Below are positions 8,153 through 15,560 of a stretch of 18,106 nucleotides of DNA, one piece after another. A program made the translations under genes and the position numbers. The stretch is from UHGV virus genome UHGV-0176695; one strand, written 5' to 3'. Below the pieces are notes generated by a model, which was not told the DNA's origin, ran no database searches, and worked only from the letters and a program-made list of their open reading frames with translations. Positions within the stretch are counted from its first letter, which is position 1, and each line of letters begins with the position of its first letter. This stretch comes from a virus.

Positions 8153-8434
8153 TTATTTACTGGTATGAGTACGGCATTTAGCTATTTCATTCCGGGCTTT
8201 ACTGTCTCCGCGACAGATACAACGCACCGTGTCTCCGGTCAGCGTGGTGATGTAGGCTTCATCCGTTTTTTCCACCGAAATGCATGGTACATTTCCATCC
8301 TGGCAATACTCCACTTGGGCAGCAAGGTGAGTGTTGCGCGGGTAAAATTCCAGGCGATACATATTCCCCAGAACATGCACTTCTTCAACCTGACGCCCAT
8401 CTTCCGTTACCGTGATTTTTTTCAGTGCGTACAT
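8153..8434 (-). CDS. Hypothetical Cys-containing protein (93 aa)
   Basis: Track ORF trimmed to ATG 8434, preceded by a GGAGG ribosome-binding site; MYALKKITVTEDGRQ...; five Cys in the C-terminal half; no transmembrane segment; directly downstream of the endolysin. Confidence 0.5.
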   Translation of the reverse strand: MYALKKITVTEDGRQVEEVHVLGNMYRLEFYPRNTHLAAQVEYCQDGNVPCISVEKTDEAYITTLTGDTVRCICRGDSKARNEIAKCRTHTSK

Positions 8435-8504
8435 GCGTACCTCCGTTCTTTCGTTTTTTGAGCAATAAAAAAGCCGCTCATGGCGGCCCTGTATGTTTTG
8501 CAAG

Positions 8505-8882
8505 CTATCGCTTCAATTGAAAATGTGGACCGTCTTTAAGCGTCCGCCAGTCCCCGCCCCATTCGATGGCGATTCCCAGCTCTGCGGCAGCCTGCTTAAA
8601 TGCCTGTGCGATTTTCTCGTACAGAGGCCAGTCCCATGACACCTGACTGCCAACGTAAGCCACAACATCCACCGCATCACCGGTCAGGTGGCGGCTGTTC
8701 ATGGTCTGGCTTTTCCCTGCCGCAACCAGTTGTTTCTGACGATACTTACTGCGCAGGCCTTCCGTAATACCGAAATCAACCTCCGTAAGCTCCAGCGCAC
8801 GGCGAACGACAGCAACCAGCTGTGGTTTAACGCCCTCCAGATTCTTTTCGCTGCGACGACTAAATCTGAATTTACCCGACAT
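8505..8882 (-). CDS. Endolysin, peptidase M15 family (L-alanyl-D-glutamate endopeptidase type)
   Basis: ATG at 8882 with a GAGGTGA ribosome-binding site (the track start at 8888 is GTG). Contains the zinc-ligand motif S-x-H-x2-G-x-A-x-D (SRHLTGDAVD) and a C-terminal His (WGGDW...DGPHFQ), typical of VanY/M15 phage endolysins. Confidence 0.8.
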   Translation of the reverse strand: MSGKFRFSRRSEKNLEGVKPQLVAVVRRALELTEVDFGITEGLRSKYRQKQLVAAGKSQTMNSRHLTGDAVDVVAYVGSQVSWDWPLYEKIAQAFKQAAAELGIAIEWGGDWRTLKDGPHFQLKR

Positions 8883-8884
8883 AT

Positions 8885-9160
8885 TCACCTCAACAATGGA
8901 AAGATTTTTGTGACGTTCCCGCGTGCGCGTATCACCAGCACGCAGAACAGCAGGTTAAAAAACACTTCCAGCCAGCCCGTTGCTAACGGGCGACCACACA
9001 GATAGCTGAGGGGGGCAAAGGCATACAGCAGCATCAGCAGCCAGGCCAGCCATGACATCAGCGGTTTATGTCTGGAATCACGACGACGATAAAAAAAGAG
9101 CGTCAGCACGATAACCGTGCATAACGCCACATTCAGCAATCCGGGAAGGTTACTTAACAT
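8885..9160 (-). CDS. Holin or antiholin-like membrane protein (three predicted transmembrane segments)
   Basis: Track ORF trimmed to ATG 9160 behind a GGAGGAGGAGG ribosome-binding site; 91 aa with three hydrophobic segments; overlaps the upstream membrane-protein gene by 11 nt and is followed directly by the endolysin. Confidence 0.5.
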   Translation of the reverse strand: MLSNLPGLLNVALCTVIVLTLFFYRRRDSRHKPLMSWLAWLLMLLYAFAPLSYLCGRPLATGWLEVFFNLLFCVLVIRARGNVTKIFPLLR

Positions 9161-9542
9161 TGCCTCCTCCTCCACCCCGCAGACGGGAGAACAGGCTGGA
9201 CACCAGTGATGCAATATCCTGCTGGTGGATGAACGAGAGAATCTTCACCGACACCACTGACACCAGCACTGCACACAGTGCGTCGACAGGCGCACCGTCA
9301 AACCCTGTATGCTTTACCAGCCAGGATGCCAGAACCTCTGCGCCCAGCACGCCAATAATGAACGACACCAGAAAATGCGCCGCCACACGCCAGGCTGAAA
9401 GCGCCTGCGGCATCGTTGCCACAAACAACGCCCCAGCGAACGCACCAAACACAATCCCGAAATCCGTTCCGGTAAACAGCCCGAATACCGTCGCCCCGCC
9501 GAGCGCCGCAGCCGTGCCGGAACCGGATAAGGGTTCAGACAT
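9150..9542 (-). CDS. Putative holin (multi-pass membrane protein, 130 aa)
   Basis: Track ORF 9150..9680 trimmed to ATG 9542, preceded by AGGAG with a 7-nt spacer; the longer ORF would run through an upstream terminator. Gly/Ala-rich hydrophobic segments; first gene of the lysis cassette. Confidence 0.5.
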   Translation of the reverse strand: MSEPLSGSGTAAALGGATVFGLFTGTDFGIVFGAFAGALFVATMPQALSAWRVAAHFLVSFIIGVLGAEVLASWLVKHTGFDGAPVDALCAVLVSVVSVKILSFIHQQDIASLVSSLFSRLRGGGGGNVK

Positions 9543-9556
9543 ACTTTTTCTCCTGT

Positions 9557-9580
9557 AAATAAAAAAGGCCACCAGCGGCC
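9557..9580 (-). terminator. Intrinsic terminator immediately upstream of the holin ribosome-binding site
   Basis: Minus-strand hairpin GGCC-GCTGGT-GGCC (plus 9567-9580) followed by TTTTTTATTT (plus 9557-9566), then AGGAG and the holin ATG. Confidence 0.45.
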
Positions 9581-9664
9581 CGTAAAAAAACACCCCATCA
9601 AAGGCACCCGCAGATGCATTTTGTATGGTGTTATCTGATGTGATGTACGCCGGACGTGGCGCGG

Positions 9665-9694
9665 ATATAAAAAAGGCCACGCAAGTGCGCAGCC
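9665..9694 (-). terminator. Intrinsic terminator downstream of the cargo gene
   Basis: Minus-strand RNA hairpin GGCUGCGC-ACUU-GCGUGGCC (8 bp including two G-U pairs; plus 9675-9694) followed by UUUUUUAUAU; lies 8 nt after the TGA stop at 9704..9702. Confidence 0.5.
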
Positions 9695-9701
9695 CGATGA
9701 T

Positions 9702-10286
9702 TCAGAGATTTTCGAACGATTCCTTTTTACGACTCCAGCCTTCTATCTTCGGAAGAGATGCTTTGCCAAATTTCACCTCATTCATCGACATTAAGATACT
9801 GTCTTTGATGAACTCGCATATCTCGTTAAATTTTGCGTACGTATCTACGTGCGAAAATGTTCTGGCCTGATAACCATCAACTGAAATCGTTATGTTATCA
9901 CCATCAAGCAAAAGAATCTTTACACCGACTTTCACCCATTCCGACTGCCGCGGGTTGTCATCAATGACAGTACATAAATCAAATTCAACACCATCCTGAA
10001 GCTCAACCCTCAAATCCTCAGGTTTATTAACGTGTCCGCGCCACGATATATAAACATACGGACGTTCTTTGCCGTTAATATCACGCCACTGCGAGGCAGG
10101 CAGTTCCAGAGAATTTTCATAAACACTGACTAGCCTTTTGGCGGTATCCCGCAACCGCTGAATGTATCCCTGCTCAGCTTTCAGTATTTCGGCCCGTTTT
10201 GCCCTGATATCCACATAAGTGACCACTGTATCAATCCTCTTATGAACAAATAAACAAGCCATCATAATAACCGCCAGGGTATACAT
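9702..10286 (-). CDS. Cargo (moron) protein of unknown function; N-terminal hydrophobic anchor, coiled-coil-like segment, beta-rich C-terminal domain
   Basis: Open frame 9702..10391, but the track start is GTG and the extension runs through two terminator hairpins. First ATG after them is 10286 (MYTLAVIMMACLFVHK...). An alternative GTG about 60 nt further downstream (VVTYVDIRAK...) has a better ribosome-binding site (AAGAGGA, 8-nt spacer) and would remove the anchor. Region is clearly more AT-rich than its flanks. No family recognised. Confidence 0.5.
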   Translation of the reverse strand: MYTLAVIMMACLFVHKRIDTVVTYVDIRAKRAEILKAEQGYIQRLRDTAKRLVSVYENSLELPASQWRDINGKERPYVYISWRGHVNKPEDLRVELQDGVEFDLCTVIDDNPRQSEWVKVGVKILLLDGDNITISVDGYQARTFSHVDTYAKFNEICEFIKDSILMSMNEVKFGKASLPKIEGWSRKKESFENL

Positions 10287-10309
10287 GAAAAAGGCCCGCC
10301 GCAGCGAGC
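10287..10309 (-). terminator. Intrinsic terminator abutting the cargo gene start
   Basis: Minus-strand hairpin GCUCGC-UGCG-GCGGGC (plus 10294-10309) followed by CUUUUUC, then ATG 10286. Confidence 0.4.
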
Positions 10310-10332
10310 CATAAAGAAACAGGATTCTGAAT

Positions 10333-10356
10333 AAAAAAAACCGCCTGGTACGGCGG
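10333..10356 (-). terminator. Intrinsic terminator downstream of the tRNA genes
   Basis: Minus-strand hairpin CCGCC-GTACCA-GGCGG (plus 10341-10356) followed by eight U (plus 10333-10340). Confidence 0.55.
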
Positions 10357-10718
10357 CTGAAATGGTCAAAAGAACACGTTATATATGTCACAACATTTGA
10401 GGCGTCGGGTGCCTCCCGAAGTATTCAGCCCTGCATGAACACTGTGACTTCCCGCTAAACCGACTCTTTAAATCACCCTCGCACTGAGGAACGCCTCTGC
10501 GGTGTCATTACAACACCAGAATGATGCATCACCGACCCTGCCAGGAAATACAAAATCTCCACCAGCAATGCACCATTCTGCTGCCGTAAAAAAATCAGCA
10601 CTGAGGCTAACCTGGCCTCAAATCATAGCCAGAGAACAGAATGTCTCTTAAAACAACCCGCTCCCACGTAATAAAAAATACGCCAGTGCTGCAATACAAT
10701 AAGGCTTATTTCAAATGC

Positions 10719-10793
<75 letters not shown>

Positions 10794-10796
10794 ATA

Positions 10797-10872
<76 letters not shown>

Positions 10873-11041
10873 ATTGGTTCCTCAGGAAAAATAAAAATGA
10901 CCGCGCTTTACATCCCCCTCGGAACCGAAAAAGAATATTAATGAGGACAGACACTTTTTCAATCAAAAACCGTGTCAATATTCGTAAATATATGTATAGT
11001 TTTCCATTAGTTATGAAATTCAGAAATAATGACACGCACAT

Positions 11042-12088
11042 TTAACGATTATTTTTTATTTCAATTACAGTCTGGTTAAATCTCTCTTCTTCCAGTTCCA
11101 CACCTATTGCACGCCTTCCCAGCGATAATGCTGCTTTTATTGTTGACCCCGACCCCATAAAAAAATCAGCGACCAAATCTCCCGGATGGCTGCTGGCGGT
11201 AATTATCTGACGCAACATATCCGCCGGTTTCTCACAGGGATGTTTGCCGGGGTAATACTGCACAGGCTTGTGCGTCCAGACATCCGTATACGGAACGGCA
11301 GCCGATACGGAAAAATAACGCCGCAGGGATTTGTACTCCTCCAGCAGACTGGCATATTGCCGGTTCAGTTCACTGTATGTGCTGACCAGCTGGTGGTGTG
11401 GCTTTTCCAGTTCACCGCGCTGATGTTTTTCTGCTGCAACACGCGCAAACAACGCCTGTAATTTCAGATAATCGCCTTCGTTCGGCAACTGCCACTGACT
11501 GGTGCCAAACCAGTGCGAAGCCATGTTTTTCTTTCCGGTGGCTTCCGCTATCTGTTTTGACGTTATTCCCAGTAATTCACGCGCATCACGAAAGTAAGAA
11601 ATCAGCGGGGCCATGACGTGCTGTTTTAGCTCGCGCCCCTTTGCCGCATAGCCGTCATTTTTGGGCTGGTATGGCCCCTGATAATGTTCAGCAAACAGAA
11701 TGCGTTCTGTTGCCGGAAAATACGCCCGCAGGCTTTCCTTGTTGCACCCGTTCCAGCGCCCGGACGGCTTCGCCCAGATAATGTGGTTCAGCACATTAAA
11801 GCGTTCACGCATCATGATTTCGATATCAGATGCCAGGCGATGACCACAGAACAGGTAAAGACTTCCGGCAGGCTTTAATACCCGCCAGAATTGCGCCAGA
11901 CACTGGTCCAGCCATTTCAGATAATCATCGTCGCCCTTCCACTGGTTATCCCAGCCTTCGGGCTTCACTTTAAAGTATGGCGGGTCTGTGACTATCAGAT
12001 CGACAGAGTTTTCCGGTAAGGTCTGGATAAATTCCAGGCAATCAGCGTTGATTAACTCACAACTGGATATTTTCACAGTATTAGCCAT
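11042..12088 (-). CDS. DNA methyltransferase, beta-class amino-MTase (N6-adenine or N4-cytosine); no adjacent restriction gene
   Basis: 348-aa ORF with ATG at 12088; catalytic motif IV DPPY (LIVTDPPYF) near the N-terminus and the AdoMet-binding motif FFMGSGST near the C-terminus, the circularly permuted order typical of the beta class. Neighbours are tRNAs and a small HTH gene, not an endonuclease. Confidence 0.85.
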   Translation of the reverse strand: MANTVKISSCELINADCLEFIQTLPENSVDLIVTDPPYFKVKPEGWDNQWKGDDDYLKWLDQCLAQFWRVLKPAGSLYLFCGHRLASDIEIMMRERFNVLNHIIWAKPSGRWNGCNKESLRAYFPATERILFAEHYQGPYQPKNDGYAAKGRELKQHVMAPLISYFRDARELLGITSKQIAEATGKKNMASHWFGTSQWQLPNEGDYLKLQALFARVAAEKHQRGELEKPHHQLVSTYSELNRQYASLLEEYKSLRRYFSVSAAVPYTDVWTHKPVQYYPGKHPCEKPADMLRQIITASSHPGDLVADFFMGSGSTIKAALSLGRRAIGVELEEERFNQTVIEIKNNR

Positions 12089-12436: not shown

Positions 12437-12559
12437 GTCTTTTTTCCTTTTCTGGTTAACGTGACATACCAATAACTCTTGTCCAAAAAGCCAGCAAGCT
12501 GAAAGACCGGCATTCGCAACCACCAGCGCATTTAACGTCCTGTACCGCTTTTCGGGCAC

Positions 12560-12582
12560 AAAAAAACCCGCTTGGCGGCGGG
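12560..12582 (-). terminator. Intrinsic terminator about 50 nt downstream of the late promoter (tR'-like)
   Basis: Minus-strand hairpin CCCGC-CGCCAA-GCGGG (plus 12567-12582) followed by seven U (plus 12560-12566). Confidence 0.6.
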
Positions 12583-12636
12583 TTTTGCTTACTTTGCCAT
12601 CGCGTACAAAATCGGCAAAATATCAGATTTGCATGA

Positions 12637-12665
12637 AATATATGCTTTTTAATCTACTTTTGCAA
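12637..12665 (-). promoter_or_regulatory. Sigma70-type promoter just downstream of the Q-like gene (candidate late promoter pR')
   Basis: On the minus strand: -35 TTGCAA (plus 12660-12665), 17-nt spacer, -10 TATATT (plus 12637-12642). The -35 overlaps the last codons of the Q-like ORF. Confidence 0.45.
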
Positions 12666-13338
12666 TACTTTGCTTTGAAAATGCCGCCTTTTGTTCCAAA
12701 CGCGTTCTCATTACCAACAATAAAGCCTCACTATCCAGCTGGTGGAAAATGTGTTTCATTGCAACCCAGTGACCAGTAAATGTTTTGGACCAGTTTTTAG
12801 TTGTCACTCCCGCCAGTAATGCCAGATCCTGGTATTCATAACCTTCCCCGCCAAAAAGTTCTGCTTTTACTGCCTGCGCCGCCAGCCAGATTAATTTTTT
12901 CAGGCGTTCCCGTGTTTTCTCTGCAATTTTCCTGTTGCCAGAATGAGCCTTAAACTCTTCCCATGCCCAGCGGGTTATGGTGACCTGATACTCCCAGCAA
13001 ATATTTCCGCTGTAACACCACAACAACCAGGTTTTATGAGGTTCTTCAAGAGACAGAACAGCCCGTCGCCATGAGGATGTCGAAAACTCAACCTGACTTA
13101 CCAGAGGAATTGACGTCCCCTTCGCCAGCGATTGTTTCCCCGGGATTGGTGGATTATCCCGCGTGATCATTTTTCCAGTCACTTCATCGCGGTACCGGAT
13201 TTTTTTACGCCTGTAACGCCCTGTATCGAACATGGCATTCTCCTGCCAGGCTTCAAGCTGACCTTTTGTTGCCCCACTCAAATCGGCGGTGGCGATAATG
13301 AGCTGCTCACGAACAAACTGTAAATACTGGTTATTCAT
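12649..13338 (-). CDS. Putative late-gene antitermination protein (Q-like)
   Basis: 229-aa ORF; ATG at 13338 overlaps the RusA stop (ATGA). Sits directly downstream of rusA and upstream of a promoter-terminator pair, the classical lambdoid Q position. Assigned by synteny and architecture, not by recognised sequence motifs. Confidence 0.45.
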   Translation of the reverse strand: MNNQYLQFVREQLIIATADLSGATKGQLEAWQENAMFDTGRYRRKKIRYRDEVTGKMITRDNPPIPGKQSLAKGTSIPLVSQVEFSTSSWRRAVLSLEEPHKTWLLWCYSGNICWEYQVTITRWAWEEFKAHSGNRKIAEKTRERLKKLIWLAAQAVKAELFGGEGYEYQDLALLAGVTTKNWSKTFTGHWVAMKHIFHQLDSEALLLVMRTRLEQKAAFSKQSIAKVD

Positions 13339-13694
13339 GCGCACTCCAGCCCTGTGATTTTTATCCCCAACCGACCACCAGGAACGACCTGACCGCGCAC
13401 AATATTAATTTCATCAAACTGCTCGTCGTCGATAAGCAACCCCGCATGTGTCAGTGCATCCAGTGGTGCTTTCAGAATATTGTCCAGGTCACGACGGCGC
13501 TTATCCGGCGGCTCTGCAATGATCTTTATCGCCAGCCTTCCGGACAGGTTTAATTTCAGCCGCTGCTGGTGAACAATAAGCGCCACATCCCGGCGATAAC
13601 GCTCACCGACTTTTGATACAAAATATGTGCTGCCACGACGTCGCCAGTAGGTGTTCACCGTCGGCGGGTAAGGCAAAACAAACTCTATATGCAT
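13335..13694 (-). CDS. rusA: RusA-family Holliday junction resolvase
   Basis: 119-aa ORF; ATG at 13694 with an AGAGG ribosome-binding site. Sequence (LPYPPTVNTYWRRRG...PDKRRRDLDNILKAPLDALTHAGLLIDDEQF) matches the E. coli RusA pattern (LPWPPSNNRYY...[23 protein letters not shown]) from memory. Confidence 0.85.
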   Translation of the reverse strand: MHIEFVLPYPPTVNTYWRRRGSTYFVSKVGERYRRDVALIVHQQRLKLNLSGRLAIKIIAEPPDKRRRDLDNILKAPLDALTHAGLLIDDEQFDEINIVRGQVVPGGRLGIKITGLECA

Positions 13695-15196: not shown

Positions 15197-15352
15197 TTAC
15201 TTCTCAGATTCGTAGTCCACGAAGACAACAACCTCCGTCTGGCCGGTTCGGATTCGTACCTCGCAGAGGTCTTTCCTCGTTACCAGTGCCGTCACTATGA
15301 CGGTTAAACAGATGACGATCAGGGCGATTAACATCGCCTTTTGCTGCTTCAT
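15197..15352 (-). CDS. hok: Hok/Gef-family type I toxin (small membrane-depolarising peptide)
   Basis: 51-aa ORF translated by hand: MKQQKAMLIALIVICLTVIVTALVTRKDLCEVRIRTGQTEVVVFVDYESEK. ATG at 15352 with an AAGGAG ribosome-binding site 9 nt upstream. Near-identical to E. coli Hok proteins from memory. It is missing from the ORF track because it is under 60 aa. Confidence 0.85.
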   Translation of the reverse strand: MKQQKAMLIALIVICLTVIVTALVTRKDLCEVRIRTGQTEVVVFVDYESEK

Positions 15353-15560
15353 AGCCTGCTTCTCCTTGACCTTTCGGTCCGTAAGAGGCTAACCTATGTT
15401 TGTGTGGCATAGATTGGGCCTCAGATTAATGTTAAGCGTCCTGCAAGACGCGTAATGTTAACTGGGGCTTTTCTCTGTCTGCCTTACAGTGGCATGCCCG
15501 AGGCAGACAGCCTCAAGCACCCGCAGCAATCTTACCGACACCGATAAGAAAACGCTATTT
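15353..15560. promoter_or_regulatory. Structured hok leader with a mok-equivalent frame and candidate Sok antisense region
   Basis: The frame upstream of and in-frame with hok reads PLTDRKVKEKQAM, matching the Mok N-terminal region from memory, but is closed by TAG three codons further upstream. Plus-strand candidate antisense promoter: TTGACC at 15366-15371 and TAACCT at 15390-15395. Hairpins at 15436-15451 and a 9-bp inverted repeat CTGTCTGCC/GGCAGACAG at 15475-15510. Confidence 0.35.

Follow-up and report, generated by a model that had tools for sequence, protein, structure and literature searches.

The cargo gene examined here lies on the minus strand of the virus genome UHGV-0176695, within a stretch of 18,106 nucleotides that was analysed at its full length and is called the window throughout; all positions are those of the window and are collected in Table 1. 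Gene mapping along the minus strand showed the order Q antiterminator gene, candidate pR' promoter and tR' terminator, TrmB-like open reading frame (ORF), DNA methylase, tRNA-Thr, tRNA-Gly, cargo gene, two holins and M15 endolysin. This bore out a preliminary description of the locus, in which a single gene had been placed downstream of Q, a late promoter and the tRNAs and upstream of the holin, as all of these landmarks were found in that order. The arrangement of the pR'/tR' candidate agrees with that of lambdoid phages and resembles their short pR' leader RNA. The longest ORF at the cargo gene extends from 10391 to 9702 on the minus strand, and its first ATG, at 10286, would give a product of 194 amino acids (aa).

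A consensus scan of the 3.5-kb region identified 12 sites composed of a hairpin and a U-tract, in comparison to 4.1 ± 2.2 such sites in shuffled sequences. The three terminators that had been proposed around the gene, two upstream and one downstream, were all recovered as hairpins (T1, T2 and T3), and one or two more lie before the holin. RNAfold energies were -12.5, -14.5, -14.9 and -8.3 kcal/mol for T1, T2, T3 and T5, respectively. The AT-richness ascribed to the gene was found in direction, with a guanine-plus-cytosine (GC) content of 0.436 (0.45 at third codon positions, GC3) against a window mean of 0.505 and values of 0.53–0.59 in the adjacent holins, but it proved modest in degree, with the gene ranked at the 6.8th percentile when compared with 525-nt windows and with an equally low or lower GC content in several further segments of the window.

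The Shiga toxin slot and the limits of the cassette

Comparison of the window with the genome of phiP27 (NC_003356), a phage carrying Shiga toxin (Stx) type 2e, showed 93.0% identity across positions 12585–11091, which encode the TrmB-like ORF and the methylase, and 93.5% identity across positions 9634–8511, which hold the pre-holin leader, both holins and the endolysin. Between these two matching blocks phiP27 carries ileZ, argO, stxA2e, stxB2e and ORF L27, whereas the window carries tRNA-Thr, tRNA-Gly, a 394-nt spacer and the cargo gene. Terminator T2 aligns base for base with the phiP27 hairpin located 3' of argO and 5' of stxA2e, and it also aligns with the tRNA-to-gene junctions of two prophages (L022 and L017) in which the cargo gene directly follows a tRNA. 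The cargo gene is therefore preceded by the tRNA-module terminator that also precedes stxA2e. Judged by these alignments, the site is the actual Stx slot of a phiP27-like lambdoid prophage, and the Stx-equivalent position that had been suggested from gene order is upheld by flanks 93% identical to those around ileZ-argO-stx2eAB and by the shared T2.

Both loci have in common the succession of TrmB-like ORF, methylase, tRNAs, terminator, cargo, two holins and M15 endolysin. They differ in that the cargo of the window is unrelated to Stx and consists of a single 174-aa protein predicted to be cytoplasmic, in that the tRNAs are those for Thr and Gly instead of Ile and Arg, and in that the window has the additional 394-nt spacer with T1 ahead of the cassette. 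A further arrangement was observed in phage SerU-LTIIb (L054, KU052038), which has the same methylase-tRNA-holin backbone with the tRNA-holin block duplicated, and in which LT-IIb enterotoxin genes are found after the endolysin and not in the slot between Q and holin.

The limits of the exchanged segment were obtained from E. coli prophages without the cargo gene. In two of these (L003 and L004) homology with the window ends at 10325/10329 and resumes at 9665, with about 235 bp of unrelated sequence in between, and these breaks delimit a cassette made up of T2, leader, gene and T3 at approximately 10324–9666. Homology resumes further downstream, at 9634, in two other cases, namely phiP27 and a prophage (L002) in which the cargo gene is followed by a TerB remnant and DUF3927. 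The module of tRNA-Thr, tRNA-Gly and spacer is conserved at 83–86% in prophages that lack the cargo gene. Read from these alignments, the pair of upstream terminators reflects two modules whose ends lie side by side, where T1 closes the tRNA/spacer module and T2 travels with the gene.

Related E. coli prophages were found to carry different genes, or nothing annotated, at the cargo site, and among 5426 complete E. coli genomes only 27 have a close relative of the cargo gene. Separate acquisition, which the preliminary description had deduced from base composition, is thus borne out on other grounds, as related prophages either lack exactly the segment 10324–9666 or carry other genes there. A short sequence following T3 (ATATCCGCGCCACG...) recurs 3' of module terminators in many loci. 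This post-T3 sequence (ATATCCGCGCCACGyCCGGCGyACATCA; window 9640–9665, L005 5549–5581) is 94% identical in phage CharmingMan, despite a cargo-family protein in that phage that is only 27% identical to the protein of the window. The post-T3 sequence is probably a recombination linker for cassette exchange.

Start codon, product and family of the cargo gene

The preliminary description had read the product as a membrane-anchored effector with a hydrophobic N-terminus. In our first search (n = 19 homologues) the 20-residue hydrophobic extension (MYTLAVIMMACLFVHKRIDT) was found only in the closest relatives, while distant members almost all begin with the motif M-I-T-Y/F or reach it after a non-conserved extension of 12–13 residues. 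This motif aligns with GTG 10226, which is the sole start common to all relatives, and the RefSeq annotation of E. coli A19 has a 174-aa product beginning at the aligned position. Even for the 194-aa form the Kyte-Doolittle maximum over 19 residues reaches only 1.47, less than is usually required of a transmembrane segment, and hydropathy analysis of the cargo protein, whose conserved core starts GVTY/MITY, identified neither a signal peptide nor a transmembrane segment. From this sequence comparison we conclude that the conserved product would be a soluble 174-aa protein and that the anchor appeared only because the frame was read from its first ATG; the membrane-anchored effector is therefore abandoned, as the segment in question lies upstream of the conserved start, is not conserved and is insufficiently hydrophobic. 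A lipoprotein based on the cysteine of the MMAC sequence in the extension was considered and rejected, since the extension has no charged n-region and is not conserved. The conserved protein also lacks a transmembrane segment or lipobox of the kind looked for in a membrane exclusion or abortive infection (Abi) protein, a holin or an antiholin.

The choice of start codon determines how much leader is available to the gene. With GTG 10226 as the start, 66 nt remain between T2 and the gene, and these hold the promoter-like site TTTTCA-16-TATTAT (10291–10264) with 9 of 12 consensus matches. Of 15 subfamily representatives, 14 have a -10-like hexamer 28–43 nt ahead of the core start, four of them with a TGn extension, and purine-rich sequence occupies the Shine-Dalgarno position in all subfamilies. 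A terminator lies 3' of the gene in nearly all relatives examined, and the order terminator, -10-like hexamer, Shine-Dalgarno sequence, ORF and terminator recurs in most subfamilies. The earlier statement that no room exists for an own promoter consequently applies only if translation begins at ATG 10286 or ATG 10265/10262, and the exclusive dependence on Q that had been derived from it does not follow from the family-conserved start. An own promoter, a second translational start, or both are each possible, being compatible with the leader sequence.

Structure prediction of the cargo protein by AlphaFold2, from an alignment of 27 sequences, gave a mean predicted local distance difference test (pLDDT) score of 85.9 and a predicted template modelling (pTM) score of 0.78. 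The model consists of a helix at residues 4–39, eight antiparallel strands at 46–124, a second helix at 130–149 and a disordered tail. Foldseek comparison with PDB and BFVD returned nothing at E ≤ 0.001, and sequence searches of PDB with two family alignment profiles and with the fusion protein P0150 described below gave nothing meaningful. As modelled, the cargo protein is an alpha/beta scaffold without catalytic signature and is not a membrane protein, a known enzyme class or a secreted toxin.

The gene had been described as belonging to no recognisable family. This held for Pfam and NCBIfam, where the cargo protein has no match, and for the defence hidden Markov models (HMMs) of PADLOC-DB 2.0, where no family was found at E ≤ 1, but not in general, as the protein belongs to a fairly large phage family, PHROG 5091. 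The HMM of PHROG 5091 was matched at E 3.3e-43 by residues 1–155 (profile positions 2–162 of 164), with 155 of the 164 profile positions covered; the label attached to the profile ('unknown function') carries no functional annotation, and membership is therefore uninformative about function. An HMM search of 1.84 billion representative proteins identified at least 150 clusters (50% identity) at E ≤ 1e-3, 78 of them at E ≤ 1e-10, nearly all of which are single-domain proteins of about 155–180 aa. Family motifs are MxITYxDI, SLxLP..W.D..G..PYV, FxLxTVxDDxPR(GG) and CExIKD. Among the polar residues Y57 and K141 are invariant and Y36, S39 and D90 nearly so, and the DDxPR(GG) loop is common. A giant PKD-repeat protein (P0090) was removed as a false positive arising from the TVxDD strand motif. 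When the cargo protein and three distant members were compared by tblastn with 50,697 phage records, Escherichia phage CharmingMan was the sole match.

One metagenomic protein of 275 aa (P0150; L046 208–1035) was observed to combine an N-terminal hairpin of the Acb2/Tad1 type with the cargo-family domain. The hairpin match (PF24729) has an E value of 1.5e-5 and scores 25.5 bits against a gathering score of 27, on a contig of only 1.1 kb. This fusion is a weak lead towards counter-defence. The same hairpin was absent from the cargo protein itself in the Pfam search.

Survey of the genomic context placed relatives of the cargo gene between Q and holin in E. coli, Salmonella, Citrobacter, Hafnia, Yersinia, Klebsiella oxytoca and IMG/VR contigs, next to Q genes from three Pfam families (PF06323, PF06530 and PF03589) and holins from at least four families. 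One group of the family is located between lysis cassette and small terminase, and distant members occupy a site between late operons of a P2-like prophage and a site adjoining an Mrr-type nuclease in an E217-like tail region. Given this variety of prophage sites and neighbours, members of the family are mobile accessory genes that stand alone and do not belong to the lysis machinery. A module of TerB and DUF3927 (TciA/TciB-like) lies 3' of the gene in phage CharmingMan and in the majority of E. coli carriers. The module occupies the same cargo region between Q and holin, mostly directly downstream of the cargo gene, but it is absent from the window, where present it is parted from the cargo gene by the gene's terminator, and it also occurs without the cargo gene, which marks it as an independent module. 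Phage N15 was also examined for tci genes; none is present there, and this lead was dropped.

Coordinates and neighbouring elements

Table 1. Positions of the late-region features surrounding the cargo gene in the 18,106-nt window.
Feature	Position	Strand	Remarks
Q antiterminator gene	12649–13344	-	PF06323, E 4e-88
pR' candidate, TTGCAA-17-TATATT	12637–12665	-	overlaps the end of the Q gene
tR'-like terminator, 10-bp stem (12586–12563) then T8	12555–12586	-	about 50 nt downstream of the pR' candidate
isrK-like Rfam match, weak	12561–12632	-	23.8 bits against a gathering score of 50; overlapped by the tR'-like terminator
TrmB-like small ORF	between pR'/tR' and methylase	-	
N6/N4 DNA methylase	11042–12088	-	
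tRNA-Thr	10797–10872	-	
tRNA-Gly	10719–10793	-	
Structured spacer ending in T1	10329–10524	-	weak STnc100-like match; backbone, outside the cassette
Terminator T1, stem 10358–10339 + U8	10331–10358	-	closes the tRNA/spacer module
Terminator T2, stem 10310–10293 + U5	10288–10310	-	first element of the cassette
Promoter-like site TTTTCA-16-TATTAT	10264–10291	-	-35 hexamer is the T2 U-tract
Shine-Dalgarno sequence AAGAGGA	10235–10241	-	8 nt upstream of GTG 10226
Cargo protein, core coding sequence	9702–10226	-	174 aa, 20.2 kDa, isoelectric point (pI) 5.8
Cargo gene, alternative in-frame starts	ATG 10262/10265 (186/187 aa), ATG 10286 (194 aa)	-	
Terminator T3, 9-bp stem (9695–9674) + U6	9668–9695	-	cassette end
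Backbone linker and pre-holin leader	9543–9665	-	weak hairpin + U7 (about 9618–9590), terminator T5 (9581–9566)
First holin	9150–9542	-	PF16931
Second holin	8885–9214	-	PF05449
M15 endolysin	8505–8888	-	
ORF without family assignment	8153–8503	-	usual spanin position

The 394-nt spacer between tRNA-Gly and T1 (10329–10718, minus strand) is highly structured, with a minimum free energy (MFE) of -142 kcal/mol. Its last 196 nt (10329–10524) gave an STnc100-like match (RF02076) of 19.3 bits against a gathering score of 47, with a fold z score of -2.0. Small RNAs (sRNAs) of the STnc100/PasD type have been reported from the corresponding region of Stx-like prophages (Zhu, Shabalina and Storz preprint, doi 10.64898/2026.05.13.724894), and our comparison with the Pas sRNAs of the enteropathogenic E. 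coli (EPEC) strain E2348/69 drew on that preprint and on PMC8550237. An assignment of the spacer to STnc100/PasD was not obtained, the score being below gathering and blastn returning no similarity to the PasD2 or PasA region of E2348/69. The terminator-bearing spacers were likewise rejected as PasA, PasC or PasD of that strain, where PasA is encoded on the opposite strand, as blastn found no similarity and the resemblance is confined to the terminator hairpin. The spacer could nonetheless be a divergent prophage sRNA.

Two further elements were observed in the window. A promoter-like sequence TTGAAA-16-TAATAT (10935–10962, minus strand), about 60 nt upstream of tRNA-Thr, suggests an own promoter for tRNA-Thr and tRNA-Gly, whose expression in the lysogen would then be possible. 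A strong match to the sok antitoxin RNA at 15350–15522 on the minus strand (RF01794, 109 bits, E 2e-24) indicates a putative type I toxin-antitoxin locus of the hok/sok kind in the prophage early region.

Expression and possible function of the cargo gene

The explanation that we favour, with a confidence somewhat above even for the model as a whole, is that the cargo gene forms a self-contained accessory ('moron') cassette at about 10324–9666 of a phiP27-like late operon and encodes a soluble cytoplasmic product. Features of a moron were found in its variable presence among related phages, its own downstream terminator T3 and a modest shift in composition. T2 would have been inherited as the terminator at the end of an ileZ/argO-type tRNA module, and the short leader behind it would supply the promoter-like site and the Shine-Dalgarno sequence, giving a product of 174 aa, or of 186/187 aa should translation begin at an upstream ATG as well. 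T1/T2 and T3 would insulate the gene in the lysogen, and any low-level expression would originate from the weak, putative promoter-like site. During lytic growth, Q-modified polymerase starting at pR' would read through tR', T1, T2, T3 and T5 to the holins. As such a polymerase must cross these terminators for the lysis genes to be transcribed, the cargo gene would be co-expressed on induction, as lambda biology leads one to expect. Late Q-dependent transcription across the gene, already put forward in the preliminary description, is thus retained, with the gene in late orientation between the pR'/tR' candidate and the holin and at least six terminators to be crossed.

Morons in the sense of Juhala and Hendrix include bor and lom of lambda and gp15 of HK97. 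The cassette shares with these lambdoid morons that it is an extra gene present in some relatives, that it lies in the late operon, that it is bounded by terminators and somewhat AT-richer than its surroundings, and that it has a candidate promoter of its own; it differs in that bor, lom and gp15 are envelope proteins, whereas the product of the window is predicted to be cytoplasmic. HK97 gp15 is cited in PMC11364771, which also describes Tai and Ati of phi80, a moron-encoded defence and a Q-dependent late counter-defence. As in phi80, the cargo gene is an accessory gene at a lambdoid late-operon hotspot whose expression may be split between the lysogen and Q-dependent late transcription. In the tblastn search of 50,697 phage records the cargo protein has no detectable sequence similarity to Tai or Ati, and the analogy is one of logic only.

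Several observations weigh against the autonomous cassette. The compositional bias of the gene exists but is modest and not unique in the window. The promoter-like site is weak, and in AT-rich leaders hexamers of this kind often arise by chance. An alternative reading of this segment is a weak Shine-Dalgarno sequence with an in-frame ATG (10265/10262) located 12–13 codons upstream of the core start, in which case only about 27 nt would be left after T2 and expression would be purely Q-dependent. In several relatives the cargo gene is the first after pR'/tR', which would fit a plain late gene equally. Such a gene, translated from ATG 10265/10262 or 10286, without own promoter and made only on induction, could act as a late counter-defence comparable to phi80 Ati or could modulate lysis or assembly, and we regard this as a real possibility of distinctly lower probability. 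It accords with the open in-frame ATG found 11–13 codons upstream in 9 of 14 subfamily representatives, often after GAGG or AGGTGA, with the extension of 11–16 aa called for about one third of 150 representative proteins, with the position directly 3' of pR'/tR' in Klebsiella oxytoca and other prophages and with the precedent of a Q-dependent late anti-defence gene in phi80 (PMC11364771). The extension is, however, not a feature of the family, as in five subfamilies such an ATG is missing or an in-frame stop intervenes; a terminator directly 3' of a gene within an operon is what one would sooner expect of an autonomous cassette, and the distant P2-like and E217-like members lie far from lysis genes, which argues against a lysis-specific role.

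Two other explanations concern the product and not its expression. An anti-defence factor of the sponge type, one that, like Acb2 or Tad1, would sequester a nucleotide of immune signalling or a protein of the defence machinery, would find a parallel in the P0150 fusion, and a small, soluble, probably oligomeric protein with strongly conserved polar positions (Y57, K141, Y36, S39, D90 and the DDxPR(GG) loop) would suit it. We nevertheless consider a sponge unlikely, because the hairpin is missing from the protein of the window, the fusion is a single case on a short metagenomic contig and below the Pfam gathering threshold, and such proteins are usually encoded by early genes. Less likely still is a virulence or toxin factor of lysogenic conversion released by phage lysis as a functional analogue of Stx. 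The gene does occupy the stx slot of a phiP27-like prophage, and several carriers are Shiga toxin-producing (STEC) or enterotoxigenic (ETEC) E. coli isolates, but the protein has no signal peptide, transmembrane segment or hydrophobic N-terminus, it shows no A or B subunit homology in Pfam or PDB sequence searches and no similarity to AB5 toxins or any enzyme, and its family extends to Hafnia, Citrobacter, Klebsiella oxytoca, Yersinia and metagenomic non-lambdoid prophages.

Returning to the moron cassette, we propose with low confidence that the cargo protein is a protein-binding factor in phage-phage or phage-host conflict, which may take the form of superinfection exclusion or defence in the lysogen, or of counter-defence in the late phase. 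A conflict role is favoured by the soluble alpha/beta scaffold without catalytic signature, by a distribution restricted to prophage cargo and by defence-linked neighbours such as TerB and the Mrr-type nuclease. A bolder proposal, which we hold only tentatively and would sooner doubt than accept, is that the gene represents a new family and a new fold of stand-alone phage-conflict proteins which spread, as a cassette bounded by terminators, through lambdoid, P2-like and other prophages, each a one-gene defence or exclusion factor or a late counter-defence protein or sponge, and maybe made as two isoforms from in-frame starts 12–13 codons apart.

Moron cargo at the stx site is a well-known kind of element, while the gene family found here is uncharacterised and its fold unmatched. 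This sizeable, unstudied family with a confidently predicted fold is a reasonable candidate for screens of prophage defence and counter-defence, and its interest would rise if either activity were found. The slot between Q and holin of lambdoid prophages carries Shiga toxins and other conversion genes that are expressed on induction, and in the window the exchange of the stx2e block of a phiP27-type backbone for a different module can be followed to the base pair. The T2 terminator shared ahead of the cargo, together with the conserved linkers at the swap points, makes this a clear case of cargo exchange at the site.

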